From contig OZ024743.1 of the NCBI GenBank assembly GCA_964016885.1, positions 296,050,001 through 296,114,000 on the forward strand: 64,000 bases of DNA, in the 5' to 3' direction. Shown one piece after another: positions 10,600 through 54,915 of this stretch. The stretch comes from Eledone cirrhosa. Lineage: Eukaryota. Each line of letters opens with the position of its first letter. Within the stretch, counting starts at the first letter, position 1. The notes beneath the pieces were generated by a model. That model was not told the DNA's origin and searched no databases. It worked only from the letters and a program-made list of their open reading frames with translations. The position numbers were made by a program, and so were the translations under genes.

Positions 10600-10605
10600 A
10601 TTATT

Positions 10606-10655
<50 letters not shown>

Positions 10656-11226: not shown

Positions 11227-11268
<42 letters not shown>

Positions 11269-12768: not shown

Positions 12769-12800
<32 letters not shown>
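10600..12800. repeat. Compound trinucleotide tract (ATT/CAT/CAC/CCA)
   Basis: About 2.2 kb of degenerate triplet repeats with internal higher-order duplication. All frames give homopolymer peptides. Confidence 0.95.
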
Positions 12801-14242: not shown

Positions 14243-14332
14243 GCTACTACTACTACACCACCACCACCATCACCACCACCACCATCACCACCACCACTAC
14301 TACTACTACTACTACTTTTGCTATTGTAATAA

Positions 14333-14530
14333 TGTGGTGGCTTGGAAGAATTGGTAGAGCGTCGGAGACCACGGTTTTGCAGCATAGAGTTACGGTCCTT
14401 TACGGTCTGAGTTCGAATCACGCCGAGGTTAGCTTTGCCTTTCATCCTGTAGTAATACACTGGCATCGATTTAATCGACTTTCTTCAAATTGCTGGCCTT
14501 GTGCCTAAAGTAGAAACAATTATTATTATC
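14333..14530 (+). mobile_element. tRNA-derived SINE, internally deleted
   Basis: B-box GAGTTCGAATC at ~14409, homology to 10107, (ATT) tail. Confidence 0.78.
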
Positions 14531-14546
14531 ATTACTTTATTATTAA

Positions 14547-14770
14547 GGGTGGTGGATTGGCAGAATCGGTAGAGCGTCGGACACCATGCTTTGCAGCATA
14601 GAGTTACGGCCCTGTACGGTCTGAGTGCAAATCCCGTCGAGGTTAACTTTGCCTTTCATCGTTACAGGATCGATAAAATAAAACACCAATAATTCACTGG
14701 GTTCGATTTAATCGACTTCCCCCTCCTCCAAATTGCTGGTATTGTGCCTAAATCAGAAACCATTATTATA
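14547..14770 (+). mobile_element. tRNA-derived SINE
   Basis: TGGCAGAATCGG A-box, same body as the other copies, gaaaccattattat tail. Confidence 0.8.
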
Positions 14771-14780
14771 ACTACTACTT

Positions 14781-16005
14781 CCCTTGCCCCGTTTGCGCCT
14801 CGCCAACTTGGAACGGCTCCTCTTCAAATTCTTGTGGAGGGGTCAGGTTCCGTTGGTGAGGCGGTCCATCTGCTGCCAGCACCCTCTATGTGGAGGGCTG
14901 GGCATGCCGTGGCTAATGATGCGCAGATACGCGCTAAGGCTGCGGCATCTCCAGATATTCTGCCTAAACGGTGAACAGGTGTGGCCGCAGCTCGTCTCTT
15001 TGAATGAGCTGCAGTCCTGGGTCAAGAAGAGACCGAGACTGGGTGACTGGCATCTGGAATGTTGCCAGACACTCACTGCCCTCTACCAGGCGGGCAATGT
15101 GGTCAGTGGAACTTCCACTCTCGAGTTCTATAGAGGATTAGTGGAGGGCAAGTGCGATGACGTACTAGGAGAGGCTCTGGGCGTCAACGAAGTAGAACTG
15201 ACCAGTATGTTCCGGAGGACTTTCGAGCCGGGGACGATGGATAACTTCCAGAAATCCCTCGCTTGGCAGTGCTACCGGGGGGCGCTGCCGGTTCGGGATA
15301 AACTCTACAGGCACGGAAGTGCTGTCAGACGAACCTGCCCGAGATGCGCGCAGAGCGACGAAACCGTTCTGCACGCACTCGTCCAGTGTCCGTGCATTGC
15401 TGACTTGTGGGGTTATGTCGAACAGCTATTGTCGCGTGTAGAACGGATCCGGCTATCGTCCGAGTCCATAGTGAAGATTGACCCGCCGCCTTCTTTTGGT
15501 CAGGAAGGGCAGGCAATTTTCCTCTGCCTGGTGGCAGTAGCGAAAGAGGTTGCATGGTGGACCAGGTTGAAAGGACTGAAGACAGACACTTTTCTCTTCG
15601 GCCAATCCCTCATCAACTTCTTCAAGTTTCACTTGGAAAGGAAGGTGAGGGTGGAGAGAGAAGTGCTGCCCCCCAGTACATTTACTGAAAGGTGGGTGAA
15701 TGTGGCGAGAATGGCCCGCGTGAGTGGGCCTACTCTGATCATGCGCCTGTAGGCTGGTGAATTCGAGAAGGAGAGGGGTGCCCTTCCCGGGTGCCCTAGG
15801 AGCGTCGGGTGGCTCAGGACTGGTGGGGTGCTTGAGTCAACCCTGGGTGGTGATCCCTCTTATTGGGGAACTTTCATTGTTGTATTTTTATTGTTATTTT
15901 GTTTTTTTGTTATTTATACTTACTCGATCTCTATGTAAACCCCCACTGTCCCTGTCTATTGTGTTGTCCCCTATATGTCGGCCCTTGTGGCCAATAAATG
16001 AAATC
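14781..16005 (+). mobile_element. 5'-truncated Tx1/L1-type LINE (ORF2 C-terminus + 3' UTR)
   Basis: Open frame 14784-15752 with FKFLW..GGLGMP and the zf-RVT-like CPRC..ETVLHALVQC. Ends aataaatgaaatc + (att). Follows a SINE ATT tail. Confidence 0.88.
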
Positions 16006-16536
16006 ATTTATTATTGATGGGGTTTCTTCGGTGTTTGTAATCCGTCAATTAATTGTCCGTTTGATAGCAAACGTTGCTGTCCTTTTGTTAAAACTACAAT
16101 GTATATATTTCGTTCTTTATTGTTTTTATTTTGTATTAATATTATTATTGTTATTATTATCACTATTATTTTGATAGTTGTTATTATATTATTGGCCTTC
16201 TTCTTTTACTTATTATTATTATATTGTTATTATTATCATTATTATTATCATCATCATCATCAACATCATCACTAATTATTACTATTATCTCTTTTATTAT
16301 TTTTATTGTTAGACACATCTTTATAATAAACATTATTATCATTTTCTAAATTGGTATCACTGTGCCAGATAAAAGAACACTATATATATATGTGTGTGTG
16401 TGTGTGTATATAAGTATTGATATATATATATAATTATTTCTGTGTTCATGTGTATGCATATATCTATAGATATACATATGTATATATCTATACGTACATA
16501 TAAGTACATATATACATATATATATGTGTATGTATG

Positions 16537-16628
<92 letters not shown>

Positions 16629-16815
16629 TACATACATACGTACCAATAAAAGTTTCGAGGTGATCAATAAATGTTAACATTACTGGTCTACACTAGAAGA
16701 TTTTGAAGGAAAAAAATTTGAAAACGTTTGAAAGCGCAACACACAGTCACGCGCGCACACACACACATACTACACACACACACATATATACACACACATA
16801 CTACACACACATACT

Positions 16816-16940
<125 letters not shown>

Positions 16941-17307
16941 TACTCATAGAAAATAATTTTAAAAATGTATTGAAAGCTTCAAATAAAGATATAAATAAAT
17001 TGCATTGCTTTAGAAAACAAATAAAACTTAATAGGAATGAATTGAGAAGACAATGCGATGTCGTATAAAAAAAACTACGGCAAGATTCCTTGATTAAAAA
17101 AGAAAGAGAAGCAATCTAAGACATTACAATAGTTGTTGATTATTGAAGCAGTGAGAAAGAATTCACGGGTTTATATAGACACTTTCTTTCTCCCCGATTC
17201 TGTTCGCTTGCCTAACTATTTATATTAATTATTTTATTGTATTCTTACACAGAACCGTGATATTATAATTATATGTCTGTATAGTTATACACACACAACA
17301 ATATATC

Positions 17308-17346
<39 letters not shown>

Positions 17347-17553
17347 GTGAGGTTTTTTTTTTGGGGGGGGGGGGGGGTTATAGAATGAAAAATAACCGAG
17401 GTGTCCTACAGGAGTGAAAGTATAAAAAAAAAAAAAAGATGAAATCGAAAACTCTACTTTTGAAAAGCAGAAGAACTGCGAAACCGGTAAAGGAACCAAA
17501 TAAATATATATATATTTTTTTAAATAAGACTCCAGTTGCATTTTCGATTTCAT

Positions 17554-17594
<41 letters not shown>

Positions 17595-17607
17595 CACATA
17601 CGCACAC

Positions 17608-17679
<72 letters not shown>

Positions 17680-17770
17680 GGGGTAACAAATAATAGTTAT
17701 ATGCAGTCCACTTAGGTGAGGTTAAAAACCTTTTTTGTATAGCAAACCGTGTCAATCTTCTTTCCTGATT

Positions 17771-17800
<30 letters not shown>

Positions 17801-17801
<1 letters not shown>

Positions 17802-20800
17802 TGTTATACTTTGGGAGGGTCATATTTGTGTAATAATATTGCCAGAATTAATAACAGAACACATTCACTGTTTGGTTGGTTTTCGCTTCTGTGTCTTTTA
17901 TATCGGTTAATTTAATTTATTCGGTCCTCACTGTTACCATTGACTAACCAACGGTCAAAAATACAGATACAATATAGACACAAACACATATATATAGTCT
18001 AACAAAGTTCTTTCGTTGCACATCTGCAACATCGTCAGTGGTGCTTTTATGTTTCCTCCTGTTGTATTGTATGCCTACGCCATCTTTATTTAGTCTGTTT
18101 ATTTATTTATTTATTTATTTATTGTATTCTCTGCGCATGCGTTTGCGTGTGTGTATAGTGTTTGATGTGTGTTCGTGTTTGGGTGACTGTATATTCTTAG
18201 GTTACTACTGTGTGTTTATATGTGTTTGTTGTTATTGTGCTTGTGTATGTATTTATTTTTTTATTTATACTTCTCTTAGGTCAGTATTGTTTGTTTGGGT
18301 GTTGTTGTTATTCCATTTATTTTTTTCTGTTTAGCCTTGGTCTTCTAAGTTCTATTTCGCTGGCCTCTCTGATTTGCCTGTCTGCTGGGTCATTTCTATC
18401 TTTCGATATTATTCTAATTTCTATGTTGTCTATGTTACCGTGGAGTTGTTGTCTGGCATGTTCGTATAATACTGAAACGTTTTTTCGTCCTTTTACTTCC
18501 CCCCAGTGTTGGTCTATCCTTTCACCTATGCTACGAGCTGTCTCGCCTATGTATGTTGTTGTCATGTTTCTTCAAGTACCCTCTGTACATCTTATGCTAT
18601 AGATTACGTTTCTAGTTTTACAGTTTATCCGGGGGTTTACTTTACATATAATACATTTCCTATTAGTACAGTGGATTTTCTTAAAAGGGTAGGTTTTGCT
18701 GATCAGGGATTTTATGGTGGTACCTGGCTTTTCTACCACCTTAATCTTTAAGTGGGTCTTTCTCAGGGCCTTTCTACACTGATTAGCTAATTTCCCTCCA
18801 GGGGTAGCGTCCACAAACATGACACTCTAGTATCTCTGTTTGTTGTACCATGAGGTGGCTTTCCCTATCTTATGTCTAGTCCAATCTAAGCTATTCCTGT
18901 ATAATGGGCAAATTCCTTTCATGTCCAGTTCTATGAGGGTCTTATACTTCTCCGATAGACAGAACAACAACAACAACCACAATGATAATAATAGAAACAT
19001 TAACGACAGACACAGCAGCAGCGACCACAGTATTAATAATGGTAGTAATACGAGTAACAACAACAACACCACAGTGGTAATAATAGAAATAATACATGTA
19101 GCAACATTAATGATAGACACAACAACAACAACAAAAACAAGAAACATAATAAATGTAACAACCACAATGGTTGAAATAACAGTAACAACAACAACAACGG
19201 TGGAGAAAACAACAACAATACATCTAACAATCACAGCAACAATACATCTAGCAATCATAACAATAATAATAATGTTAATGATAGGAATAACAACAACCAC
19301 CATAATAACAATAATAGCAACACACACAACTATGACGATAGATATAATGACAACCCCTTAGAGAAACTATTCTTCAATCCAGCTGACAAAACATATAAGA
19401 TTGGCAATATCTATCCTACGAGGTTACCCTTTAATAAAAGGGTATGTATACCACAACAAATAGATGACGAGACAGAGGCACAGTTCACCATAGCTAGAAA
19501 TAAGATTAGACAAATAGTAGACCGGTAAACTAAGAGACAAAGCAGACCAGATGTCCAACAACTTGGGAGGAAACCTGTAGAAGGCTTGGTTAGCCTCAAG
19601 CAGCGCACAAGAGATGGTGAGGTAGTATGTCTACCCACGGATAAGTCTGGTAGGATGTCAATAGACAGCATGCCGAACTACTTCAAGGCTATGTAACCCC
19701 CACATCACCAACACGAGCGAAATTGCACAGCAAATACATGATGGGAGAGAGAAACTCCTCAACGATCACATGATGATGTGGACCGACATCCTAAAGCCAA
19801 GCTGACGCACTGCCAACAACTTCCAAGCGTCTAACAATGGCATACCACCCTTGTATGGGCTCCGCAAAGACCATAAGACAGTCGACGGCCCGACAACAGA
19901 ACCACCAACAAGAGCTGTATGCGGAGCAAATATAGTTAGCAACTACAGGATCTCCTACTTCCTCTCAATGGTTATACGCCCCATAATCAAGATGCCCCCA
20001 GATGTATGTGACAGTACAGAGAACCTCCTCAGCAGAATCAGTGAGTGCAACAAAAACAAAAACCTATCCAACTGCATAATAGGCAGTATGGATGTGGTAT
20101 CAGTGTACCCATCCATTAACATTGATTTTGCTGTGGAAAAATGTGTGGAGATGATCATTGAGAGTGAGGTGGAGTTCTGCGACGTCGACACAGACTAACT
20201 GGGCCTCCTACTTAGACTTACCTATGACACTGACTACCTAGACAGCAATGACCTTAGACGTTTCTGCCTCAGTAGACCCATAAGGGGTAGACCCCCCCCC
20301 CCCCGCCATAACCTCAATGGCAAAAAAGACTCCCATGGGAAGGTGGATTGGGTGGACCAAAGCTATACGGACCCCCAAAACAATGATCAGAGAAGTATAA
20401 GACCCTCATAGAACTGGACATGAAAAGAATTTTCCCATTATACAGGAGCAAATCATGGAATAGCTTAGATAGGACTAGACATAAGATAGGTAAAGCTACC
20501 TCTTGGTACGACAACCAGAGATACCAGAGTGTCATGTTTGTGGACGCTACCCCTGGAGGGAAATTAGCTAACCAGTGTAGAAAGGCCCTGACAAAGACCC
20601 ACTTAAAGATTAAGGTGGTAGAAAAGCCAGGAACCACCATAAAATCCCTGATCAACAAAACCTACCCTTTTAAGAAAACCCACTGTACTAATAGGAAATG
20701 TATTATATGTAAAGTAAACCCCCGAATAAACTGTAAAACTAGAAACGTAATCTATAGCATAAGATGTACAGAGGGTACTTGCAGAAACATGACAACAACA

Positions 20801-21548
20801 TACATAGGCGAGACAGCTCGTAGCATAGGTGAAAGGATAGACCAACACTGGGGGAAGTAAAAGGACGAAAAAACGGTTCAGTACTATACGAACATGCCAG
20901 ACAACAACACGACGGTAACATAGAAATTAGAATAATATCTAAAGATAGAAATGACCCAGCAGATAGGCAAATCAGAGAGGCCAGCGAAATAGAACTTAGA
21001 AGGCCAAGGCTAAACAGAAAAAATGAATGGAATAACAACAACACCTAAACAAACAATACTGAAACTAAGAGAAGTATAAATAAATAAATAAATAAATAAA
21101 TACATACACAAGCACAATAACAACAAACACATATAAACACACACTAGTAAACTAAGATAGAATACAATAACCAATACACAGTCACCCAAACACGAACACA
21201 CATCAAACACTATACACACACGCAAACGCATGCGCAGAGAAGACAAAAATAAATAAATAAATAAACAGACTAAATAAAGATGGCGTAGGCATACAATACA
21301 ACAGGAGGAAACATAAAAGCACCACTGACGATGTTGCAGGTGTGCAACGAAAGAACTTTGTTAGACTATATATATGTGTTTGTGTCTATATTGTATCTGT
21401 ATTTTTGACCGTTGGTTAGTCAATGGTAACATTGAGGACCGAATAAATTAAATTAACCGATATGAAAGACACAGAAGCGAAAACCAACCAAACAGTGAAT
21501 GTGTTCTGTTATTAATTCTGGCAATATGACCCTCCCCAAGTATAACAA
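17801..21548 (+). mobile_element. Penelope-like element with inverted ~1.16-kb arms, decayed
   Basis: 17801-18957 is the reverse complement of ~20385-21548. Arms encode a Cys-rich linker and GIY-YIG (VIYSIRC...YIGETARSIGERIDQH...REASEI...LNRK). N-terminal RT part at 19380-20380 (YGLRKDHK, PTRAV, SMDVVSVYPSI) has stops, and the RT core is deleted. Confidence 0.9.
21325..21360 (+). ncRNA. Hammerhead-ribozyme-like core in the Penelope arm (mirror copy at 18011-18038, minus strand)
   Basis: CTGACGA-T-GTTGCA(ggtg)TGCAAC-GAAA. Stems I and III are imperfect. Confidence 0.5.
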
Positions 21549-35078: not shown

Positions 35079-35111
<33 letters not shown>

Positions 35112-35119
<8 letters not shown>

Positions 35120-35986
35120 GAAAGGTATAGAAATTGTTGCAGCGAGAAGCTAACATTATTCCTTAACATATATGCGACTATAGCGTCAAAATGGGAAAAA
35201 TAGTTAACGTAAGATGCGGGAAAAAACAATTCAAACTCATCTCAAAGAGAATCAGGATATAAATTCATCCACAGAATTTAGTGAAATCCAGGGAAAAATC
35301 AATAGAGCCTTAACTCATGATAAAATAAAGTCTAAAATACCCATCCTTCAATTTGGAAAAACTTCAAATGCTCTGTATAGTCTTAAAGACTATTTCATGA
35401 AAACTTTCAGTGGAGATGGTCACGGTTGGATTTCAAACGTCAGCAGAGCTCAACTCGATAACCAGGACTCTCACAGATTTATATGCCAAAAAGGGAATTT
35501 TAAAACTGGCTAGTTCACCATCATGCGTGATTATGAAAAACGCACATGAGGAAAAACAGGGCTAGTGACGTCAGAATGAGACAAATGTTTGTTTACAAGA
35601 AACAACAGTCAAAAACATTCCGAAAAAACTCTACAGAAGAAGTTCAGCAAAAAGCAATATTATCGCAGGTTTTATTTAAAAAACCGGGATTAGTCACAAA
35701 TAATTTAAGCACTCTAGGAAAAACTCCGAGTATAAATATATAAATGAAAGGTATAGAAATTGTTGTAGCGAGAAGCTAACAGTATTCCATAACATATATG
35801 CGACTATAGCGTCAAAATGGGAAAAATAGTTAACGTAAGATGTGGGAAAAAAACAATTCAAACTCATCTCAAAGAGAATCAGGATATAAATTCATCCACA
35901 GAATTTAGTGGAATCCAGGGAAAAATCAATAGAGCCTTAACTCATGATAAAATAAAGTCTAAAATACTCATCCTTCAATTTGGAAA

Positions 35987-35990
<4 letters not shown>
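35112..35990. mobile_element. TA-flanked non-coding element with ~255-bp terminal direct repeats
   Basis: 35112-35363 is nearly identical to 35738-35990 (ataaatgaaaggtatagaaattg...tttggaaaaact). (TA)n on both sides. Confidence 0.7.
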
Positions 35991-38028: not shown

Positions 38029-38085
38029 AAGATAGATAGCTAGATCGATCGATCGATCGATCGATCGATAGATAAATAGATAGAT

Positions 38086-38137
<52 letters not shown>
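38029..38137. repeat. (GATA)n/(GATC)n tract, left border of the LINE array
   Basis: Seen directly in the sequence. Confidence 0.95.
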
Positions 38138-38138
<1 letters not shown>

Positions 38139-38336
38139 TCATTATTTGCCACTGGGGCGTACCTAATGGGACATTACAAGACGGGGGTTTTACATAACAA
38201 TCATACAACTTTAACATTAATAAATAACAATAAACTATATGTAATAAAATAACAATTGAAATCCCCAATAGGGGGGAACGTTACTGCAGGGTTGTTTTAC
38301 ACCCCGAGGATAGAACAACCCTCCACACCAGGAACA
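38138..38336 (-). mobile_element. Tx1-like LINE E1 (3' UTR only)
   Basis: Similar to the 3' UTR of E4 (40789-40995). GATA repeats on both sides. Confidence 0.85.
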
Positions 38337-38346
38337 ATAGATAGAT

Positions 38347-39202
38347 ATGTTTCTTTATTAGCCACAGGGGCACAAAAGAAGAGGACAATTACAAAGGGAG
38401 GAGTTTACATACAATAAAAACATGTAAAATATTATCACAAATGCAAATTAAAAGTTAATCGATTTTCCCCAATAGGGGGAGACAGTTCATATGGGTAGCA
38501 CATACCCCCGAAAAAAATGTGCAACCCTCATCTCCAGCAGTACGAAGAGTTTGTACCCCTTTCCTCTCTTCCTCTTTTCCCTCAAACTACAGTCTGATAT
38601 AGAGAGAAGGCCCATTCACTCGGGCCATTCTTGCCACTTTCACCGACCTTTCATAAAACTTGCTGGGGTACAGCACCTCTCTCTCCATCCTGATTCTTCT
38701 TCCAAAGTGGTATTTGAAAAAAATAATCAGTTGTTGGCCGGAGAGATGGGTGTCTGACCTCAGCCCTTTTAACCTCGTCCACCATGCAACCTCTTTCGCC
38801 ATAGCTATCACACAAAGGAAAACCGCCTGTCCTTCGTTTTTTGAAGGAGGATGGCGGTTTGATCATGACAATGGACTCGGTGGTCAATCGGATTGGTCCT
38901 ACCCGCGACAATAGTCGTTCTACATAGCCCCACAGGTCGGTAACGCCCGGGCAGTGTATGAATGCGTGCGCGACGGTTTCTTCGTCTCGCACGCATCTCG
39001 GACAGATCTTTTTCGAAGGGTCCCTGCTCGGGCGCCCATGTCTGTAGAGCTTGTCACGAATTGGTAGAGCTCCTCGGTAGCACTGCCAGGCCAGGGACTT
39101 TTGGAAGTTGTCCATCGGTCCCGGGCGGAAGGTCCTACCGAATAGACTGGCCAGTTCGTCTTCTTCCGCGCCTAGAGTTTTTCCGAGCGCGTCGTCGCAC
39201 AC
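38347..39202 (-). mobile_element. Tx1-like LINE E2 (5'-truncated)
   Basis: FQKSLAWQCYRGALP, CPRC..ETVAHAFIHC. Frameshifted. Flanked by GATA repeats. Confidence 0.9.
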
Positions 39203-39224
39203 AATAGATAGATAGATAGATAGA

Positions 39225-40756
39225 TTTCTTTATTTGCCACAAGGGCGCACAAGAAAAGGGTACAATACAAAGACACATGCCGGGGATTTTACATACAATC
39301 GTGTAAAAATATTATTAAAACAAGAAAATTTAACAATTGAAATCCCCAATAGGGGGGAGACGTTACAAATAGGTTGTTTAATACCCCTTTGATAGAACAC
39401 CCCTCAACTCTAGGAGCGTGTTGTGCAAAAGCTCCTTTCTTCCTTTTGCTCTCATCTTCAACCTACAGGTTTATATACAGAGAAGGCCCAATCACTCGGG
39501 CCATTTCTGCTACATTCACCCCACCTTTCAGTAAATTTACTGGGGTGCAGTGCCTCTCTCTCCCCTTTGATTCTCCTTCTAAAGTGGTACCTAAAGAAGG
39601 GAATGGGTTGTTGTCCGGAGAGAAAGGCATCTGTCCTCAGTCCTCTCAATCTCGTCCACCATATAATCTCTTTTACCATAGCCACTATACAGAGGAAAAC
39701 CGCCTCTCTTTTGTTTTTGAAAGAAGTTGGCGGTTTGATACTTACTATGGACTTGGCAGTCAACTGGATTTGTCCCATACGTGACAGCAGTTGTTCTGCG
39801 TAGTTCCACAGGTCGGTTACGCCCGGGAAGTGTACAATTGCGTGCAAGACGGTTTCAATGTCCTTCTCGCATCTTGAACACGTCCTCTTGGAAGGATCCC
39901 TGCCGAGGCGTTCGTGCCTGTAGATCTTGTCTCGAACTGGTAGAGCTCCTCGGTAGCACTGCCAGGCCAGGGACCTGGATAGTTGTCCATAGGTCCCGGG
40001 CGGAAAGTACTACCAAACAGTCTGGTGAGCTCGTCGTCTTCGATGCCCAGAGTCTCTCCGAGTACGTCGTCGCACTTGTAACGCACTAACCCTCTATAGA
40101 ATGTCGAAGTGGAGTCTCCACTGATTGCTGTGCCCGCTTGAAAGAGGATTGTGGGCGCCTGAGAGCATTCAATGTGCCAGGCGCCCATTTTCTTCGGGAT
40201 CCGCTTGACCCAGGACTGCAACTCCGTCAGCGAGACAAGTTGCGGGAAGGCTTGTCTCAGAAATGGGGCCCACACCGGTTGTTCGGTGAGGAATACCTGT
40301 AGATGTCGTAGCCTCAGCGCGTGTTTGCGCATCATCAGCCACGGCATTCTCAGCCCTCCGTTGGAAGGGTGCTGACAACAGACGGATCTCCTCACCAGTG
40401 GAGCCTGGAAGAGCATGCGTTCCATCTTGGTGAGGTATTCACGGGGACAAGGCACGACGGTCAAGCGGTAGTAGATGACGGACGCTATAAAAGTGTTCGC
40501 CACCTCCGCTCGACCTTTCAAGGATAGTTTGCACTCTGCCCAATTCTGGGTGAGTGCAAATACCTTGTTTCAATTTTTTTCCACCTGGAGGTCCGGACCG
40601 AACCAGACGCCAAGCAATTTCACCGGTCGTTCCGTCCAGCGTCCGGCGATGCTGTCGGACGGTATCGGTTTGCCACTCCACGTTCCGAGTTGCAAACCTA
40701 CAGACTTGTCCGGGTTCAGTTTTGCTCCTGTGAGCCTTTCGTATTCCTGCAGTAAG
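39225..40756 (-). mobile_element. Tx1-like LINE E3 (5'-truncated)
   Basis: KGRAEVANTFIASVIYYRL, GGLRMPW, zf-RVT-like end. Several frameshifts. Flanked by GATA. Confidence 0.9.
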
Positions 40757-40788
40757 GATAGATAGATAAGTGGTTAGATAGATAGATA

Positions 40789-43700
40789 TCTTTCTTTATT
40801 TGCCACAGGGGCGTACAAAAATGGGACATTACAAGACCTGACGGTGGGGGTTTTACATAAAAATAACTTTAACATTAATAAATAACAATAAACTATACAT
40901 AATAAAATAACAATTGAAATCCCCAGTAGAGGAGAACGTTACTGCAGGGTTCTTTTACACCCCGTGGATAGAACGACCCTCAACACCAGGAACACGTTTT
41001 GTAGGTGTTCCCGTCTTCCCTCTGTTTATCTTCCTCAACTTACAGGTTTATATACAGAGAAAGCCCATTCATTCGGGCCATTTTTGCCACATTCACCCAC
41101 CTTTCAGCGAATTTACTGGGGTGTAGCACCCCTCTCTCCACTCTCATCTTCCTTCTGAAGTGATACTTAAAGAAGGGGATAAGTTGTTGTCCGGAGAGAA
41201 AGGTGTTTTCCCTCAGTCATTTTAACCTCGTCCACCATATTACCTCTTTCACCATAGCCACCAGACAGAGGAAAATCGCCTCTCCTTCGTTCTTAAATGA
41301 AGTCGGCGGGGTGAACCTCACGATGGACTCGGCTGAAAACTGGATGCGTCTCACACGTGACAGCGGCTGTTCGACATAATTCCACAGGTCGGTCACCCCT
41401 GGGCACTGAACAATTGCGTGCAGAACGGTTTCAATGTCCTGCTCGCATCTTGGACAGGATCTCTGCCAGGGCGTCCATGCCTGTAGATTTTGTCTCGAAC
41501 TGGTAGAGCTCCTCGGTAGCACTGCCAGGCGAGAGACCTCTGAAAGTTATCCATAAGCCCTGGACGGAAAGTCCTCTCGAACAGACTGGTCAGTTCGTCC
41601 TCCTCGATGCTTAGAGTCTCCACGAGAACGTCGTCGCACTTATCCTCCACTAACTCTGTATAGAATGTCGAAGTAGAGTCTCCGCTGATTGCCGTTTCCC
41701 CTTGGTAGACGGCTGTGAACGCCTGTAGGCACTCGAGGTGCCAGGCACCCATTTTCGGTCTTCGCTTGACCCAGTACTGCAGCTCTGTTACTGAGACGAG
41801 TTGTGGAAGAGCTTGTCTCACAAACGACAGCCACACCGGTTCACCGGTCAGGAATACCTGGAGATGGCGTAGCCTCAGCGCATGTTTGCGCATCATCAGC
41901 CACGGCATGCCCAGCCCTCCGTTAGAAGGGTGTTGACAGCAGATGGATCTCCTCTCCAATGCAGCCTGTTTCTTCCAAGGAACTTGAAGTGTAGGCGTTC
42001 CATTTTGGTAAGGTATTCGCGGGGGCAAGGCACGACTGTCAAGCGGTAGTAGATGACGGGCCCTATGTAAGTGTTCGCCACCTCCGCTCGACCTTTCAAG
42101 GAGAGTTTGCACTCAGCCCACTTCTGGGTGAGTGCAAACACCTTCGCCGTGACCTCGTTCCAGTTCTTGTCTACCTGGAGGTCTGGACCGAACCAGACCC
42201 CGAGTAATTTCACCGGTCCTTCCGTCCAGCGTCCAACGACACTGTCGGAAGGCATGTGTTTGCCTCTCCATGTGCCGAGTTGTTTGGGTTTAGTCTTGCT
42301 CCTGTCAACGTTTCGTATTCCTGTAATAGGTTGCTGATTACCCTGATTTCTGAGGTTTTCGACACCATTACCGTTGTGTCGTCGGCATAGGCTGACGTTG
42401 CTTTCCGCAGTGCTGGTTCGATCGGGATGCCCTGCAACAGCTCCAATTTCCGCAGTAACGGCTCGAGAGTCAGTACATACAGAATGGAGGAGAGAGGGCA
42501 TCCCTGACGGATGGAACGTATGATTTGGAATATCTTTGATAGGTAGCCATTCACCTTGACTGCCGAGCAGATGGTGGTGTGCATGGCAGCGATCCAGCCT
42601 CTGAAGACGGACCGAAGCCGGCCGCCTTGAGAACTGCTTCCAAGTATTGATGGTCGACCCTATCAAATGCCTTAGACTGATCTAAATTGATCAGAGCTCC
42701 ACCAAAGCCAGGTTTACACCCAACCCTCTCTATGATGTATCGCATGAATTTGAGGTTGTCGTGTATGGAACTGGTCGGGATTGCACACATTTAGAATTCC
42801 CCTACTAGGTTCTCGACGACAAGCGCCAGCCTTACTGCTAACACCTTGGCCAAAATCTTTAACTCTGGTTTGAGTAGAGTTATGGGCCTGAAATTGCTTA
42901 TCTCATCCCCCTTGTTCTCATCTTTCCTGATCAGCGTTACTACGCCTCTGCCTACAGAACTGGGAATCCTCCCGTTCTGCTGCCAGTTGCAGTAGACCGC
43001 TTCGAGGACGCCAGAGAACAAGTCTGGTATGCCTATGTAAAACTCATAGGGTAACCATCTAAACCGGGAGATTTGCGTTTCCCGCAGCGGCCTAGAGCAT
43101 CTATTTCGCCCGCTGTGATCGGCCTTTCGCAGCTCTCCGCATACCTGCTCGAGAGTCGCGGTACGCCGTCGAGGTAGGAGCTGAAGTCCATCACCTCGCT
43201 CTATGTCCCGCTTTGCCCGAACAGTTGTGCAAAATGCTGCTGGAAGGCCGCGCACATCTGCTTGGATTCAAGTATAATGCGTCCATCTTTGTCTTGCAAA
43301 GACCGAATTGTGGATTTGTTGCCACTCTTCGCCTCTGCCACTCGGGCCAGGCTAACAGCTTTGGCTCCCTCGTTTCTTAGAGCACGTGTTCTACTTCTGA
43401 CAATACAACCTTCGTGTTTCACGTTGAAGAACTGGTCTAGTGCCGTTTTCGCCGCTAGTACGTCAGCTGTACTGCCATCCCTAAGTGCCTCTTCTATTTT
43501 AGCTACCAGTTCCTTTTCAGTTTTGTTTTTTTCTAAAGCTACTTCCTTGCTAAATGCTATTGATTCTATTCTAATTGCTTTCTTGAGAGAGCTCCACCAC
43601 CTGTTGTTGACGATCGCCCCCGTCAACTGGCACTTAACTAAGGTGCTAATCCGTTTACTGTAGGCCTTACGCGCTGGGAGCGACATGTTTAGCTTCCAGT

Positions 43701-45296
43701 ATACGGGTCCCTGTCTATGTATTCTATCAAGGTTGACTACGCAGGTTTTGGGGGTTCCTCTTCATTCTCACTTGGAGATGTAGAGGTTCCCGTATCTGAG
43801 ACTTCTGAATCAGGGGTAGGTGGGAGGGTATGTTGTGTGGTGGAGTGTTTGTGCAGGTGTTTGTGGAAGTATTTGACAGAGGGGGAGAGGCAATGGAGGG
43901 TTTTTCAGTGGGATTTTGTGTGGGAGATTGTCTCTGGTCTGTGGTGGTGTGGGAGTGGATGTTGCAGGTGTTTGTCTTGTGTTTGGTTTGGAGTGTTGAT
44001 GTCGGGGTTTTGGTGTTGGTAATAACACCTTGTTTGTCCTCGGTTTGTTTTAGAGGGGGCAAAAGGCCTTTAAGTGTGTGGTTTTCCCACACTTATGGCA
44101 CTGAGGTCTTTTCCCCTCCACTAAAATGGAGATGACATCTTCCTCAAGGACGATCCTGTCCGGTATTTTCTCAATTCTCTCTGGCCTCATTTGTACCAGA
44201 ACCTCGATGCATGTTCCAAACCAGTTATGCCGGTCTGTCCTGTCTACAGATAGGAGGGTGTCCTCATCCTCCTTCGGGATGCAGCGTAGGATCCACCATA
44301 TGTTGACCTCTGCTGGGATCCTGGTTATTTTTATTTTGTAGAATGGTCTTCCCATGTATGTGGGGAAGAAAATGTGTTGATCCGTTTTTATTGGGTGAAC
44401 CGAGTGTTTTTGTGCTAGAGTTTAGCTCTTAAAGAGCACTGACACACTTCCATACTGTTTACCTCTTTGGAGATATGCGACGTCTGGCTGATGTCATTTA
44501 GTGCAGCTTTTATAGTGCTTGTTGGGAGCGTTATGGGTTTTTTGGTAGTGATGTCAACTTTTCTATAAATTAGCTTCTTTTTCTGTGTAATTTCTCTTAC
44601 TTGTGGGGGTATGTGTGTGTGGGGGGTGTCTCCCACAAACGTCACATAGTTGGAAGCTTCTTCCAAATATTGGGACTTTTGGGAAATGTCCATGGAGTAG
44701 TATTTAAAATCATGTTGCTTAGCAACTGTTGCTGCAAATGAAATTTTGTTATTGTTGTTGTTGGTGGTGATGGTGGTCTCATTCGTTGTGTTGCCACTGA
44801 TTCCTTTTATTGTGTTGTTGTTGTTCTCATTTATTGTGCTGTTGTTGTTGGTTGTGGTGGTATTCGTGTTTGCTACATATACTTCCTTCTGTGTGTGGAT
44901 ACATGTGACGTTTGTGACGTCAGGCGTGTTCAGTTGCTTACAAGCAGCTGAAGCTTGTTTCTCTTCTAAATGTTGAGGCGATAATGTTGGCATTCCTTTG
45001 TCCATGTCTGCTACTACCTGCTGGTCAAGTAGGCATCTTCTTGTTTTGACAAAAAAGTAGGTGCCTTTACTTCAGCCATTTTAAAAAAATTGAAGCGTTT
45101 TCCAAAATCTTTTTTTCGAAAATATTGTGGATGTTTTTGCCCTGAGGGGCACGGTATTTTGGGAGAGTGACCAGATCAAAATTTGACCTGTCAGTCCCTC
45201 TACAAATTGGTATAAAAATAAAAGTTCACAATGACGAATTTCTAATGAAATTTAAACAAAACTTACCGAGCAAGTTTAACACATGTGTCCATCCCA
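40789..45296 (-). mobile_element. Tx1-like LINE E4 (5'-complete, endonuclease deleted)
   Basis: ORF1 remnants with zinc knuckle CHKCGKTTHLKAFC. ORF2 resumes at ~43746 (TCVVNLDR..YWKLN). RT motifs NFRPITLL, LDQSKAFDRVDH, RQGCPLS, YADD. 5' end tgggatggacac abuts GATA. Confidence 0.92.
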
Positions 45297-45306
45297 GAGA
45301 TAGATA

Positions 45307-48300
45307 ACTTTCTTTTTATTTGCCACCAGGGCATCAAAAAGTGGGACAAGTACAATGGGGGGAGTTTACATAAAAAGGCGTCCTCAATAAGGAGGAGGCA
45401 ATAACAATATATAAAAAATAATATATAAAATATAACAAAAATAAATTTAATAACAAAATCCTCAATAGGGAGGAGGCGCCTTGGGGGGTCGCACCCCCCC
45501 CACCGAAAAAAGTGTGCAACCCTTCTCCTTAGGAGCACAGAGAGGGGGTGCTCCCTTGATCTTTCATCTTCCTCACCTATAGTCTGATGTAGAGTGAAGG
45601 CCCATTCACAAGGGCCATTCTCGCCACTTTCACCCATCTTTCATAAAAACGCCTGGGGTGCAGCACCTCTCTCTCAATTCTGATCCTTCTTCCGAAATGA
45701 TATCGGAAGAAACGGACCAGTTGTTGGCCAGAGAGAAAGGTGTCTGACCTCAGTCCTTTCAGACACGTCCACCATACAACTTCTTTCGCCATGGCTATTA
45801 CGCACAGAAACACCGCCTCTCCTTCGTTTTTGAAGAGGGGAGGCGGCTTGATCGTTACATTAGACTCGGTAGTCAACCGGATCGGTCCCACCCTTGACAG
45901 CAGACATTCGACATAGCCACACAGATCGGCAATGCCCGAGCAGTGTACCAATGCGTGTGCAACGGTTTCCTCGTCGGACACGCATCTGGGACAGATCTTT
46001 TTCGAGGGGTGCCTGCCCGGGCGCCCGTGTCTGTAGAGCCTTTCTCGAGCAGGCAGAGCCCCTCGGTAGCACTGCCAGGCCAACGACCTCTGGAAGTTAT
46101 CCATGGGTCCCGGGCTGAATGTCCTACCGAACAGGTTGGCCAGTTCGTCTTCCTCCATGCCTAGGGCTTCTCCGAGGGCGTCGTCGCACCTGCTAACCAC
46201 CAGCCCTCTATAGAATGACGAGGTGGATTCTCCACTGACATCCGCTCCGCCTGCCAGAGAGCCGTAAGCGTCTAGGCACACTCGGTGTGCCAGGCGCCCA
46301 GTTTTCTTGGTCTTTTCTTGACCCAGGATTGCAGCTCGGTGAGCGAGACGAGTCTCAGAAAGGCTCGCCTCACAAACGGGGCCCTCACCGGTTGACCAGT
46401 GAGGAATACCTGGAGGTGCCGTAGCCTTAATGCGTGTTTACGTATCATTAGCCACGGCATCCCCAGCCCTCCTTTCGAAGGGTGTTGACAGCAGATGGAT
46501 CTCCTCACCATAGGAGCCCGCTTCTTCCAGAGGAATTGTAAGAGTGCGCGCTCCATTTTGGCGAGCGTTTCCCTTGGGCAAGGCACGACGGTCATGCGGT
46601 AGTAGATGACGGACGCTATATAAGTGTTCGCCACCTCCGCCCGACCTTTCAGGGACAGTTTGCACTCGGCCCACTTCTGGGTCAGTGCAAGCACCCTGTT
46701 CGTGACCACACCGCAGTTCTTCTCCACCTGGAGATCTGGTCTGAATCAGACCCCGAGCAACTTCATCGGGCCCTCCGTCCAGCGCCCGACGACGCCATCG
46801 GAGGGCATCGATCTACCCCTCCACGTGCCAAGTTGCAGACTGATCGACTTGTCCCGGTTCAGCTTAGCCCCTGTAAACCTTTCGTACTCTTCCAGTAAGG
46901 TGCCGATCGCTCCGATTTCCGAGGCCGTCGACACCATTACTGTTACGTCATCGGCGTAGGCCGACACCGCTTTCCGCAATCCCGGTTCCAACGGGATGCC
47001 CTGCAACAACTCCAACTTCCGCAGCAGTGGCTCTAGAGTCATTACATACAGAAGGGAAGTGAGAGGGCACCCTTGTCGGATGGACCGCGCGATATCGAAC
47101 GGCTCCGAGAGGTAGCCGTTCACCTTGACCCTAGAGCAGATGCGGCTGCTGTGCATGGCAGTGATCCAGCCCCTGAAAACGGGTCCGAAGCCTGCCGCAT
47201 CTAGCACCGCATCCAGGTAACCATGGTCGACCCTATCGAACGCCTTAGATTGATCCAAGTTGATCAGGGCCCCACCAAAGCCGGGTTCTTTCCCAACCCT
47301 CTCTATGATGTATCGCATGAGGTGGAGGTTGTCGTGGATGGACCTGGACGGGATAGCACATGTCTGCGCATCTCCCACCAGGTTGCCCACGACAAGCGCC
47401 AACCTCTTTGCTAGCACCTTGGTCAAAATCTGTAACTCTGTATTAGCAGAGTTATGGGCCTGAAATTATTTATATCGTCCCCCTTGTTCTCGTCCTTCCT
47501 CACTAGCGTGACTACACCCTTGGTCACAGCACAGGGAATTCTCCCGTTCTGTTGCCAGTTGCAGTAGACCGCCTCGAGGAGATCGGGGAACAAGTCCAGC
47601 ATAGCTAGATATAGTTCGTATGGAAGACCATCGAGACCCGGGGATTTACGTTTGCCGCATTGGCTCAGCACGTCCTCTATCTCAGCGGTTGAAATCGGCT
47701 CCTCGCAGGACTTCGCCTCCCTGTCCGAGAGACGCGGCAGGCGGTCGAGGTATGGATCGAAGTCCACTTCCCCAACCGGTTCCTCGCCCCTTCCGAACAA
47801 TCTGGCCCAGCTAACAGCTTTGGTCTCCTCGTTTCCCAGAGCACGTATTTTGCTTCGGACTATGCAGCCTTCGTGTTTCGCGTCGAAGATCTGGCCCAGG
47901 GCCGTTATCGACGGCCACGTCGCCGCTTCTAATTGCCTCTTCTACACTATCTACCAATTCCCTTCCCTTCCTATTTCTACTAATTTCTACTACAAATCCT
48001 TACTAAATTCTATAGAGACTACTCTAATCTCTCTTTTGAGAGATCCCCACCACCTGCTGTTGACGATGGCGCCCGTCAACCGCTCCTTAACTAAAGTGTT
48101 AATCCGGTCCCTGTAAGCCTTACTTGCCGGTAAGGACAAGTTAAGCTTCCAGTAACCGGGTCCCTGTCTATGCGTTCTGTCAAGGTTGACCATGCAGGTC
48201 ACTAACTTGTGGTCTGAATAGCCAACCATGAGCATTTTTGGACAACTTAAAAAGTCCTTATCCTTATTTCTAACTAAGAACCTATCTAGGTACGACCTCG

Positions 48301-50893
48301 ATGATCCGCTACGGTTTGCCCAAGTCCAGGTTGGCGCAGTCGGAAAATCTAGTCGATATCTATCGGCCAGGTCAAATCGACCGATTATCTCTATCGGGAC
48401 AGGCCCCTACGTAGTCCCAACGTGCATCTAGGATACCATTCCAGTCCCCCACTAATAGCAAGGAGCGGGACGTCCCTAGAAAAGTCTCCAGACGATGGAA
48501 GAAGTCCGGCCGCGTTGACCCGAAAGGGCCGTAGACGGCTACCAGCCTAAACGCTCCGCCTTCACCACTGCCAAGGTCCAGAACCACTAGTCGACCCTCC
48601 GGGTACAAATGTACCGTCTGTGTTGCGAGACCCAGATGTTTTTGCAGCAGAACGACAACTCCACCCCCACCTCCGGGCTGACAGAGAGATGCCTGCATCT
48701 CAAAGTCATTAAAGGTGGGGGCCAGCTGTCGCACGTTGCTGATCCGGGCCTCGCAAATAACCATCACATCTATATGTTGTGACCTGAGGTCATTTAGAAG
48801 CATTGCTTGCTTCCAAGTTGAGCCCAGGCCACGCGCATTTAGACAGCCTACTCTTAGCATAGCCATGTTGGTGGTGAAGAGAAAAGGCACTTACCTCTCT
48901 GCGTCCCGGGTATCGGGCTGCACAATTTCCATGAGGGTGGGGGATGGGTTGTTGGGTGGGGTGGTGGTTTGTGGAAGTGTAGGGGCATCAGTGTGTTGTG
49001 TGGTTGGGGTGTTTGGAGTTGTATGGGTGTTTGGGGAGGGGGTGGGGAAGTTTTTTTAGGAGGACGCTATTAATGGGCCCTACGCGGGGGAGGAGGGGGG
49101 AGGGGGGCACGCCCTCTTTAAAGTTGTTTTTTAGTGTTTTATATGTGTCCTCTGGGGCCTTAATTATTTTGAGGTGGGGGAAATCTCCTGCCTGGGTGAA
49201 GTTAGGCTCTTGGGTTACTAAATTGTTGTTGTATACAATGTTTAGCAGTTTTTTTATTTCTTGTGTTTCTGTATGTGTATGCATGTTTTTGTTTCTGTGT
49301 GGTGTTTTTTGTTTGCTGTTGTTGTGTGCTCTTTTGTGTTGGTGTCAGTGTTATGTTTTGGGGAGGGGTTGTTTTCATTTGTGTGTCTGAGTTGTGTTTT
49401 CTTTGTTTTCTTTTGATTGTGTGGAAGTGCTCCTCCTCGTCTGACGACGAACGAGGGTCATCTTCCGCGTTGAAGGGGAGGGGTAGATTTTCGGGTTGTG
49501 TTTGCGGTGCGGGTATTTTGGAAATTGTTTTTTTTTAGTGGGGGGATGGGTTGGACAGTGTTTTGTTTTGGTTTGAGCTGTGGTTGTTGTTTTTGTAGTG
49601 GTGGTTGTGGTGATTGTGTTGGTTGTGCAGTTGTTGGTGGTGTAGGCAGGATTGGGGTTTTCTTTTTAAGTTGAGGACAGACAGCCCTCATGTGACCTCT
49701 GACTCCACAGAGGTAACACGAGGGCCGCCTACCCTCAACGGTAATGTTGATAAAAGTTTGATCATCCAGTATGACGTGTTCAGGGATCTGGGCGATCCTT
49801 TCGGGCCTCATTTGAACTACAAGTTCGAGGCCCAGTCCACTGAACGCGTCACCCGATGCCTTTCCCATGGATATTAGTGTGTCATCGTCTAGGTCCAGGA
49901 AACCTGTCAATACCCACCATATGTCCATAATCAGAAGGATTGTGTGCATTTTTATTTTTTGTAACCTTCTACCCATGTACGTAGGGTAGAAGGTGTATGC
50001 GGTGGATGTGATTGGTTTTATGGACAGTTTCATTGCTGTGTCCCTGTCCTTCATGAGAATGGATAGACTCCCGTAGAGTCTATCCTTCTGAATGAATATG
50101 ATGTTTTTCATGACATCTTTTAAAACCAGCTCTATCTAACTCTGTGATGGTTGAGCTGGTTTTTTGCTTTTGTTTGAGACTGTCCTAAACATGTTTAGGA
50201 GTCACTGGCATTTTAGTTCCGGGGGAGGGGGGATAAAAAATGATCCATTTTTCCCCGTATACTGTATTTTTTGGCAACTGCCAGTAGCTCCTTCGCTTTG
50301 CTTATATCTACTGGCAGATAGTCGAGGGTTTTCCTTGCCGTCTGGGCGAAGGAGACCTTTTCCTTGTTTGTGTTGCTGTTGTAGTTGGTGGTGTTGTTGT
50401 TATCACTGTTGTTGTTATCATTGTTGTTGTTATCATTGTTGTTGGTGTTGTTGTTTCTGTTGTCTTTATTGTTGCTGTTGTTGTCGTTGTTGTTGTTGTT
50501 GTTTTCGGTTTCTTGTGTCGTTGTGGCTACATCAAGTTGTCGGTCAGCAGGTGGAGAAAGTTCTCCCTCTGGCTGACCTCTGCTTTTGGCAGCTGCTGCT
50601 GTGCCAGTGGCAGGGGGAAGCTGTGAGTTTAGCTTCCCTTTTCTTTCTTTGAATGTTGGTGAAGCTGCTTCAGCCATTTTTATCAAAGAAGGAAATTTTT
50701 CGAAAGATAACAATTTTTTTTTTCAACACAATTTCGCCTAAAGGCGTAGAATAATTTGAGAGACTGACCAGATCAAAATTTGACCTGGCAGTCCCTCTAC
50801 AAAATGGTACAAAAATGAAGGTTTACAGTCAAGAATTTCTGTAGAAATTTAAGCAGAACTTACTCAGCAAGTTTCACGCGTGTGTCCATCCCA
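45307..50893 (-). mobile_element. Tx1-like LINE E5 (near full length, decayed)
   Basis: ORF1 (MAEAASP.. from ~50677; knuckle CYLCGVRGHMRAVC). ORF2 APE endonuclease (LNARGL, VYGP, GDWN, LDRFL, SDH), RT (KSPGLDGLPYE, DQSKAFDRV, QGCPL, YADD) and zf-RVT-like end. Multiple frameshifts. Confidence 0.94.
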
Positions 50894-50894
50894 G

Positions 50895-50925
<31 letters not shown>

Positions 50926-51708
50926 TGTTTCTTTTATTTGCCACAAGGGCATCAAAAGTGGGACAAGTACAATGGGGGGAGTTTACAAAACAAGGCGTCC
51001 TCAATAGGGAGGAGGCAATAACAATATATAAAAATAAAATAAAATATAACAAAAAATAGAATTATAACAAAATCCTCAATAGAGGATTTTGTTATAAAAT
51101 ATAACAAAAAATAAAATTTATAACAAAATCCTCAATAGAGAGGAGGCGCCTTGGGGGGTCGCACACACCCCCGAAAAAGTGTGCAACCCTTTTCCTCAGG
51201 AGCACAGAGAAGGGGTGCTCCCTTGGTCTTTCATCTTCCTCACCTATAGTCTGATGTAGAGTGAAGGCCCATTCACACGGGCCATTCTCGCCACTTTCAC
51301 CCATCTTTCATAGAAACGGCTGGGGTGCAGCACCTCTCTCTCCATCCTGATCCTTCTTCCGAAATGATATCGGAAGAAACGGACCAGTTGTTGGCCAGAG
51401 AGAAAGGTGTCTGACCTCAGTCCTTTCAGACGCGTCCACCATACAACCTCTTTCGCCATGGCTATTACGCACAGAAACACCGCCTCTCCTTCGTTTTTGA
51501 AGAGAGGAGGCGGCTTGATCGTTACAATAGACTCGGTGGTCAACCGGATCGGTCCCACCCTTGACAGCAGTTGTTCGACATAGCCCCACAGATCGGCAAT
51601 GCCCGAGCAGTGTACCAATGCGTGTGCAACGGTTTCCTCGTCGCACACGCATCTGGGACAGATCTTTTTCGATGGGTCCCTACCCGGGCGCCCGTGTCTG
51701 TAGAGCCT
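50926..51708 (-). mobile_element. Tx1-like LINE E6 (5'-truncated, E5 subfamily)
   Basis: Closely similar to the 3' 0.7 kb of E5. (GATA)n at 50894-50925 and 51709-51748. Confidence 0.92.

Positions 51709-51748
<40 letters not shown>

Positions 51749-52059: not shown

Positions 52060-54915
<2,856 letters not shown>

Follow-up and report, generated by a model that had tools for sequence, protein, structure and literature searches.

How did six LINE copies come to lie head to tail within one GATA microsatellite? The locus lies in a 64,000-nt stretch of the Eledone cirrhosa genome (contig OZ024743.1, positions 296,050,001 to 296,114,000; hereafter the window), where six co-oriented minus-strand copies, E1 to E6, alternate with seven GATA tracts between positions 38029 and 51748. 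An earlier note made from the sequence alone had described this layout, which we found at the positions it gave, and had proposed strand-specific insertion into pre-existing (GATA)n. Our analysis points to the same answer: the copies share one GATA repeat because their lineage inserts into GATA repeats across the genome. With a probability of roughly 0.7, we consider that members of an L1-group LINE lineage inserted independently inside (GATA)n, in one orientation, through an endonuclease nick of the GATA strand and target-primed reverse transcription.

The array as a probable series of independent insertions

E1 to E6 represent four families of L1-group (Tx1-like) LINEs (Table 1). The 3’-terminal 195 nt are 49–67% identical between families, 81% between E1 and E4 and 75% between E5 and E6. 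The four 3’-UTR groupings drawn up earlier (E1/E4, E2, E3, E5/E6) therefore hold, and the array is no simple tandem duplication. Besides the four 5’-truncation points, two intact 5’ ends had been reported. Both ends are indeed present in E4 and E5 and have a common motif (...GTGTCCATCCCA; 144 nt, 84–86% alike), but neither element is intact, since the deletion in E4 takes out the endonuclease along with the terminal part of ORF1, and the frameshifted E5 has also lost about 115 nt. As likewise noted before, the array copies have no poly(A); AATAAA (AATAAT in E1) lies 2–8 nt from the 3’ junction. The boundary between E2 and the third tract had to be moved: E2 ends at 39200, and positions 39201–39214 repeat 38334–38347 as a 14-bp target-site duplication. 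Its left copy takes in the last 3 nt of E1 as its own first 3 nt, so E2 was inserted after E1. In the family of E6 all 40 scored matches are 99–100% identical over about 300 nt.

Table 1. Positions of array elements, tracts and the AAT-associated copy in the window.
Feature	Position	Strand	Remark
S copy, (AAT)n-targeting family	14780..16005	+	5’-truncated; left end approximate
Left-bounding (GATA)n tract	38030..38138	+	degenerate; period 4, 27 copies
E1	38139..38336	-	5’-truncated LINE, 198 bp, only 3’ UTR; E1/E4 family
E2 target-site duplication, left copy	38334..38347	+	14 bp; both element ends set by comparison with copies of the E1 and E2 families
E2	38348..39200	-	5’-truncated LINE; ORF2 C-terminus with zf-RVT, 3’ UTR
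E2 duplication, right copy, with additional GATA units	39201..39222	+	duplication 39201–39214
E3	39223..40756	-	5’-truncated LINE
GATA spacer E3/E4	40757..40788	+	interrupted
E4	40789..45298	-	5’ end present; ~1.2-kb internal deletion at 43746
GATA spacer E4/E5	45299..45306	+	short
E5	45307..50893	-	near full length; disabled (frameshifted)
E5 ORF2	45577–48866	-	APE endonuclease-RT-zf
E5 ORF1	~48870–50677	-	CCHC knuckle
GATA spacer E5/E6	50894..50924	+	
E6	50925..51708	-	5’-truncated LINE, 784 bp; youngest GATA family
Right-bounding tract	51709..51748	+	(GATA)9

A second copy of the whole array, 99.8% identical, lies 55.3 kb upstream. The array is part of a 55.3-kb block that is itself repeated with 99.7% identity, which could reflect either a true duplication or a haplotype left uncollapsed. 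This setting would suit an origin of the array by tandem duplication, recombination or misassembly. We regard such an origin as highly improbable, as the divergence between the four families, the dispersed relatives of each of them, the target-site duplication belonging to E2 alone and mixed-family arrays on other chromosomes all speak for separate insertions.

GATA repeats mark the 5’ breaks genome-wide

We scored 118 independent copies elsewhere in the genome, 113 of them 5’-truncated; they are the best matches of each search and not a random draw. From 130 rows, 12 had been left out before counting (4 window copies, 5 duplicates, 3 with unresolved 5’ ends). Automatic calling halted at internal repeat-like sites, and 40 element ends were set by hand before the count. 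Under a strict test (a perfect (GATA)n stretch of 7 nt or more, no farther than 20 nt from the 5’ break) 83 of the 113 truncated copies carry the repeat on the same strand (E6 30/35, E1/4 21/27, E2 19/27, E3 13/24), often in tracts of 10 or more units. The opposite-strand repeat occurred at the 5’ break of none of the 118 copies. By comparison, a 7-nt perfect piece falls in 0.52% or 0.57% of random 20-nt windows according to two estimates, the latter from a regularly spaced sample of 400 kb with only 8 perfect (GATA)n runs of at least 3 units. The earlier proposal of strand-specific insertion into existing repeats is thus borne out beyond the window.

In 106 of the 118 copies the 3’ junction ended in GATA, and in 75 the repeat lay on both sides in fixed orientation; according to excerpts from PMC4494074, LINEs count as microsatellite-specific when the target occurs in over 20% of flanks. 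Exact counts over the whole genome agree in direction: 1596 of 2605 E6-type 3’ ends come after GATAGATA, and on the forward strand ATAGATA lies within 8 nt of 182 of 235 full-length 5’ ends. Thirty of the 118 copies fail the strict test. By eye, about 12 of these have variant or shifted tracts and the others no repeat; our tentative reading of the repeat-less ones is that they broke later. The 400-kb sample contained a single copy of these families (L255/L292), whose 3’ end lacks a GATA run, and (GA)n adjoins a few copies, on one side only.

Junctions identify the 3’ units as target DNA

Fourteen target-site duplications (17 script matches minus L123, L171 and L180) contain unique sequence and are therefore informative. 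They measure roughly 12–21 bp and all end at the 3’ junction, 13 with GATA and one with TATA. Because the duplicated sequence is unique, the 3’ units are target DNA. When the far side lay outside the repeat, unit numbers were equal on both duplicated sides, and in 29 truncated copies a single perfect unit stands at the 3’ junction; the repeat is thus not a long tail.

This bears on the possibility that (TATC)n is a 3’ tail made by the element, in which case the tracts between copies would be tails of the next copy and the clustering would reflect local tolerance. Within the array each spacer does double as the 3’ flank of the next copy, and nearly every copy carries the repeat after its 3’ end. 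Yet 84 of the 118 scored copies have no 3’ end of another family member within 400 nt (34 do), while GATA stands at most truncated 5’ breaks, and the unique duplications assign the 3’ units to the target. A repeat confined to the 3’ end with random 5’ flanks, named in the earlier note as the mark of a tail, is not what the genome-wide 5’ flanks show, and we give a tail origin very little credence.

Right tracts are longer than left ones (median 5 vs 3 units, 48 vs 32). As the duplication inflates the right tract, we make no claim of a preference for tract edges.

The elements belong to the L1 group

Pfam identified Exo_endo_phos, RVT_1 and zf-RVT in ORF2, i.e. an N-terminal APE domain, a reverse transcriptase and a C-terminal zinc-binding region. 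The best PDB match of ORF2 was human L1 ORF2p (E=3e-48, vs E=3e-19 for R2). Two ORFs (592 and 1145 aa in copy L229), 5’ truncation, target-site duplications and this L1-nearest ORF2 are features of the L1 group. A Tx1-clade element would be expected to have a type I-like ORF1 (RRM plus CCHC) and not Transposase_22. ORF1 has one visible CCHC knuckle; Pfam zf-CCHC scored E=0.005 in E5, under the cut-off, and gave no match in P0003/P0004. Its Atlas neighbours were CCHC proteins (0.92) and ZCCHC3-like RNA-binding proteins (0.89). CCHC-type ORF1s of this kind have been called consistent with Tx1 (PMC5203782). Protein, cluster and Atlas searches returned no named Tx1 family; the nearest named protein matches were hypothetical proteins of Argonauta, Paramuricea and Branchiostoma. 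We found no GATA- or AAT-targeting case for Tx1-like LINEs in the literature searched, Repbase and Dfam being outside that search.

Sister families are associated with (AAT)n

The same genome harbors two sister families, S and S2, which have (AAT)n at both ends, form arrays as well and carry the APE domain. The repeat was present at the 5’ end of all 18 full-length S copies and of all 18 S2 copies retrieved. One S copy lies in the window itself, outside the region covered by the earlier note. A supposed third AAT family (“T”, L263/L291) was rejected, as the tree identified it as an older S2 copy.

S and the GATA lineage are about 69% identical in ORF2 and 60% in the endonuclease. In the phylogeny the GATA families form one clade (support 100/100) with S as its sister (98.8/68). 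This topology suggests, with moderate support, that the GATA lineage arose once from (AAT)n-targeting ancestors; the direction from AAT to GATA has weak bootstrap support (62–68). Each type is represented by very young copies, and some natural copies of each have open ORFs.

Target choice by the endonuclease or by the RNA

In the mechanism that we favor, the endonuclease likely cuts the GATA strand inside a tract, and the end so released likely primes reverse transcription from the 3’ end of the element. About one UAUC unit at the RNA end may pair with the primer and fix the register, and a staggered second nick upstream would produce the duplication, copying 1–3 units. The remaining tract would survive, so that later elements could insert next to older ones and mixed head-to-tail arrays could grow. 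The earlier statement that the lineage regenerates its target thus holds in a modest sense only, through the duplicated units; the rest of the tract simply survives.

Alternatively, the endonuclease may be loose and the choice made at priming: if transcripts read into (UAUC)n, only nicks in GATA would pair with the RNA, the target would perpetuate itself through the RNA, and a change from AAT to GATA would need no protein change. With AATAAA no more than 8 nt from the junction, the distance from a poly(A) signal to its cleavage site would place RNA cleavage inside the repeat. One copy (L219) has 2 extra nt beyond its duplication that look RNA-templated. There are also precedents in excerpts of published work: SART1Bm initiates at RNA stretches that resemble the repeat and presumably anneal to the target (PMC7265360), and in RTE elements 3’ repeats correlate with duplication starts (PMC6007223).

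Pairing would, however, use only DNA upstream of the nick. Among the 29 copies with a single perfect unit before the junction, 15 continue with two more units beyond the duplication, compared to 19 of 1153 in the background (1.6%), so DNA beyond the nick plays a part. When two units lay upstream, the difference in downstream continuation was not significant (8/22 vs 7/29, p=0.37). Of the 15 continuing sites, one (L111) lies within its own duplication and many have imperfect upstream units able to pair with RNA; within a repeat, the nick phase and any unit supplied by the RNA are invisible. Contigs from four runs examined for the RNA 3’ end contained related sequence and nothing on the junctions. 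Selection at priming also fits poorly with the GATA and AAT families each keeping strictly to their own repeat although both are available in the genome, and with the Tx1L endonuclease, which in vitro nicks almost nowhere but at its target (PMC1950540). Taken together, we consider target choice by the RNA rather unlikely, though clearly less so than a tail or a duplication.

Candidate changes in the endonuclease

We found 33 diagnostic changes between GATA and AAT families, 11 in the endonuclease and 22 outside. Two stem changes, C152Y and I194S, place Y152 and S194 at positions aligning with L1 R155 and P197; PMC1950540 names the former as a residue that contacts DNA and the latter as the tip of the hairpin. 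The same source found that the L1 loop sequence determines specificity only in part, and grafting loops between distant elements answered the question incompletely. On sequence comparison and with moderate support, changes in the DNA-contact loops are candidate causes of the switch from AAT to GATA. The fuller scenario, an octopod LINE radiation in which AAT families gave rise to GATA families once, through few loop changes such as C152Y and I194S, is a tentative proposal that we hold to be possible but somewhat doubtful.

Relation to known systems and significance

Among Tx1-clade LINEs, Kibi, Koshi and crocodilian Tx1 elements are known to target (TC)n, (TTC)n and (TTCC)n/(TTTC)n, respectively (PMC4494074, PMC3812793, in excerpt). 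They resemble the Eledone elements as APE-type L1-group LINEs with short microsatellite targets and related families on different repeats. Compared by description only, the Eledone families differ in targeting (GATA)n and (AAT)n, not (TC)n or (TTC)n, and in comprising two types that are both young in one genome, each with open-ORF copies. Tx1L of Xenopus is likewise APE-type, with site selection by the endonuclease domain, and a predicted hairpin loop between the L1 T192/S202 anchors is common to both; the target of Tx1L is a site within the Tx1D transposon and its loop counts 11 residues (PMC1950540), whereas the loop of the GATA lineage aligns gap-free to that of L1 and its target is a simple repeat.

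Dong inserts into (TAA)n, the repeat class of the AAT families (PMC3812793), and Table 1 of PMC13282606 records Dong-R4 for O. vulgaris. In the text on R4 in PMC4640811 Dong-R4 falls in the restriction-like endonuclease clades; the review PMC3812793 lists Dong among APE types. With a restriction-like Dong-R4 and an APE domain in S and S2, (AAT)n targeting would be a convergence. SART1/TRAS1, Waldo and Mino are also APE elements in short tandem repeats whose priming may be aided by RNA-target pairing (PMC7265360, PMC3812793), but they belong to the R1 clade and have telomeric, ACAY or AC targets. SART1 moreover requires a poly(A) tail (PMC7265360), which the GATA lineage lacks.

The GATA/AAT pair bears on the way in which the endonucleases of APE-type retrotransposons specify and alter their target. 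Lineages about 69% identical in ORF2, strict for different repeats in one genome and separated by 11 diagnostic endonuclease positions provide material for testing a change of target. If the switch took place as proposed, no other known pair of APE retrotransposons strict for different targets would be as closely related, and specificity could be approached directly through them. For Eledone cirrhosa, GATA targeting accounts for the growth of single microsatellites into multi-kilobase LINE arrays, and GATA and AAT marker loci in octopods may often be LINE junctions.

Structure of the array

The six minus-strand LINE copies (E1–E6) and the seven bounding GATA tracts described in an earlier note are present at 38030–51748 of the window. 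E5 carries remnants of endonuclease, RT and zf-RVT as well as an ORF1 with a CCHC knuckle; E4 has kept its 5' end and is missing about 1.2 kb including the endonuclease. By membership criteria the lineage belongs to the L1 group. As the earlier note had claimed, all six copies end in an AATAAA-type signal followed after a few bases by (TATC)n and have no poly(A). Its division into four 3'-UTR subfamilies also held: the last 195 nt at the 3' end are 49–67% identical between the four families, and 81% (E1/E4) and 75% (E5/E6) identical inside them. Formation of the array by tandem duplication is contradicted by this low between-family identity, which leaves the proposed independent insertions standing. 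The stretch 38334–38347 recurs at 39201–39214 and takes in the last three bases of E1, indicating that E2 inserted later than E1 and adjoining it. A second copy of the array is located 55.3 kb upstream in this 3.0-Gb genome with 99.8% identity, within a repeated block of more than 35 kb. This block is either a real tandem duplication or an uncollapsed haplotype, and array copies duplicated by it were counted once.

Features in and near the window and common flanks of families S and S2
Feature	Position (window) or loci	Strand	Remarks
Repeated block, offset 55.3 kb	-20218..15141 vs 35074..70391 (G000:C4)		99.7% identity, whole array included
Degenerate (ATC)n/(CAC)n trinucleotide repeat	10600–12800		about 2 kb
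Family S LINE copy	~14780–16005	+	same 3' motif, ends in (ATT)n
Inverted repeat, 1.1 kb	17836–18956 and 20386–21527		93%
Direct repeat, 260 bp	35105–35363 and 35731–35990		97%
Palindromic microsatellite-rich stretch	52680–53043
Short-period satellite, >20 kb	about -80000 to -56000, upstream of window		with 200-N gap
Common flanks, S/S2	left: L139/L146/L157/L296/L307/L309/L311; right: L204/L208/L336

Target or tail

If (TATC)n were a pure tail, the repeat would be found at the 3' end only, with random 5' flanks. Flanks were scored in the best 30 loci for each of the four 3' ends, loci running off being extended. Ten further E6 matches brought the sample to 130 rows, from which 12 were removed (4 copies from the window, 5 duplicates and 3 that stayed unresolved), leaving 118 copies; 40 ends were reset by hand before counting. 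GATA closes the 3' junction in 106 of the 118. The opposite-strand repeat occurs at neither end of any copy (0/118), in agreement with the strand specificity proposed earlier. Using as criterion a perfect (GATA)n run of 7 nt or longer at most 20 nt from the 5' break, we found the repeat at 83 of 113 truncated breaks in this sample from the best loci (E6 30/35, E1/4 21/27, E2 19/27, E3 13/24); background rates by this criterion are 0.52% for nearby DNA and 0.57% for forty regularly spaced 10-kb stretches. About a dozen of the 30 failing copies carry a shifted tract or variant units (GGTA/GACA); those remaining without any repeat may represent later breaks. In three GATA-family copies (L123, L042, L097) (TA)n or (GA)n adjoins the 3' junction; specificity is imperfect.

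Exact counts over the whole genome are in accord, with GATAGATA preceding 1596 of 2605 E6-type 3' ends. Of 235 full-length 5' ends on the forward strand, 182 have ATAGATA at most 8 nt away; the reverse-strand count was left out because double matches inflate it. A search with the E5 5' end yielded 30 fetched loci, 26 of them independent and reaching the true end, and 25 of these 26 enter a GATA tract. Full-length 5' ends are weaker evidence than truncations because an upstream repeat could be transcribed.

A script identified 17 target-site duplications containing non-GATA sequence, three of which were set aside as ambiguous (L123, L171, L180). The 14 others measure 12–21 bp, two about 30 bp, these lengths being upper bounds where the tract continues. 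Every one of the 14 stops precisely at the 3' junction, in GATA in 13 cases and in TATA in the other; like the GATA at truncated 5' breaks, this contradicts a pure tail. Where the far side exits the repeat (L122, L177, L232 and, by eye, L241) the unit number is equal on both sides; insertion therefore added no tail. Two additional bases in L219 are RNA-templated in appearance.

Mechanism of insertion

Target-primed reverse transcription is the most likely mechanism. In this model the GATA strand would be nicked selectively at the repeat, the other nick would fall 12–21 bp upstream of the first, and little or no tail would be added. Alternatively, the target might be selected at priming, via read-through (UAUC)n RNA, which is compatible with a selective nick and does not exclude it. 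By analogy, precedents appear in the available text on SART1Bm (PMC7265360) and on RTE elements (PMC6007223). However, pairing with such RNA alone would not explain why, at sites with one perfect unit before the junction, two more units lie past the duplication in 15/29 cases compared to 19/1153 background sites (p about 1e-17). Sites with two units before the junction showed no contrast in continuation past the duplication (8/22 vs 7/29). The one-unit sites suggest that DNA on the far side of the nick is recognised, though imperfect upstream units weaken the test.

The 3' end of another member lies at most 400 nt away in 34 of the 118 copies, so that array formation is a habit of the lineage. 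Two E2-family copies, L081 and L241, have a left flank in common, apparently inside another repeated element, at a site of fewer than two GATA units; the site may be a minimal target that was hit twice, or the two copies may belong to a duplicated composite.

AAT-targeting sister families

Two related families, S and S2, have (AAT)n as target. All 40 scored S matches are 100% identical over 261 nt, mean identity among 20 fetched copies is 99.0–99.7%, and the family is very young. AAT was found at S 3' ends at 29/29 loci besides the window copy. Among these 20, the 18 full-length copies all enter (AAT)n at the 5' end; of the other two, a truncated copy carries a 15-bp duplication and the last reaches an assembly gap. 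S copies also form head-to-tail arrays with 5.84-kb spacing (G000:C1:423385667-423415101), near-identical and mostly full length with open ORFs. S2 shows AAT at the 3' end of 30/30 loci and at the 5' end of 18/18 fetched copies, one of them truncated. Among best matches most copies of the AAT families are full length, in contrast to 2/37 E6-family copies. Several copies of S and S2, located on different chromosomes, have common sequence flanking the AAT tract, which suggests transduction or a host element that is itself repeated.

At ~14330–14770 lies a short repeat of very high abundance (18 motif matches in 400 kb) that is probably a SINE. It ends CCTTGTGCC..AAGTAGAAACAATTAT, resembling the LINE 3' end CCTTGTGGC.AATAAA..GAAA followed by the repeat, and may be a partner mobilised by the LINE lineage.

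Phylogeny and endonuclease changes

An open ORF2 occurs in natural copies of the GATA lineage (P0001, 1145 aa), of S (P0002) and of S2 (P0243); P0001 and P0002 are 69% identical. Over the RT region, the sister family shares 70% identity with the nearest named protein, which comes from Argonauta hians, so that an octopod host is probable. ORF2 trees built by maximum likelihood, from an alignment possibly biased by projecting broken copies onto P0001, place the GATA families in a single clade (SH-aLRT/UFBoot 100/100) to which S is sister (98/62 and 99/68); outside these fall S2 and the Argonauta protein, and FastTree concurs. A single AAT-to-GATA switch would be the simplest reading, with moderate support. 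GATA copies are divided from S and S2 by 33 positions: the endonuclease (235 residues) holds 11 of them, the RT (340 residues) 4, and the other 18 lie elsewhere. In a HMMER alignment to human L1 ORF2p, Y152 (C in the AAT families) corresponds to R155, a DNA-contact residue of the L1 endonuclease, and S194 (I in the AAT families) to P197 at its hairpin tip (PMC1950540). As stem-branch changes of one event both are candidates and no evidence of cause.

Relation to known microsatellite-targeting LINEs

Insertion into (TC)n, (TTC)n, (TTCC)n and (TTTC)n has been described for elements of the Tx1 clade (available text of PMC4494074), ACAY, AC and TAA targets are recorded for LINEs of other clades (excerpts of PMC3812793), and Togen targets (TG)n (PMC4640811, in part). 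We found no description of a GATA or AAT target in the searchable Tx1 literature, including that on octopus and cephalopods; such a family may exist in Repbase or Dfam. The accessible portion of a recent O. vulgaris annotation names 13 L1-Tx1 families as recently active and lacks the word 'target' (PMC13282606), and that of an octopus LINE paper mentions neither Tx1 nor GATA (PMC9115989). (GATA)n is a real and well-supported target, apparently a new one, for a known habit, insertion into microsatellites. The more valuable part of the finding is the GATA/AAT sister pair.
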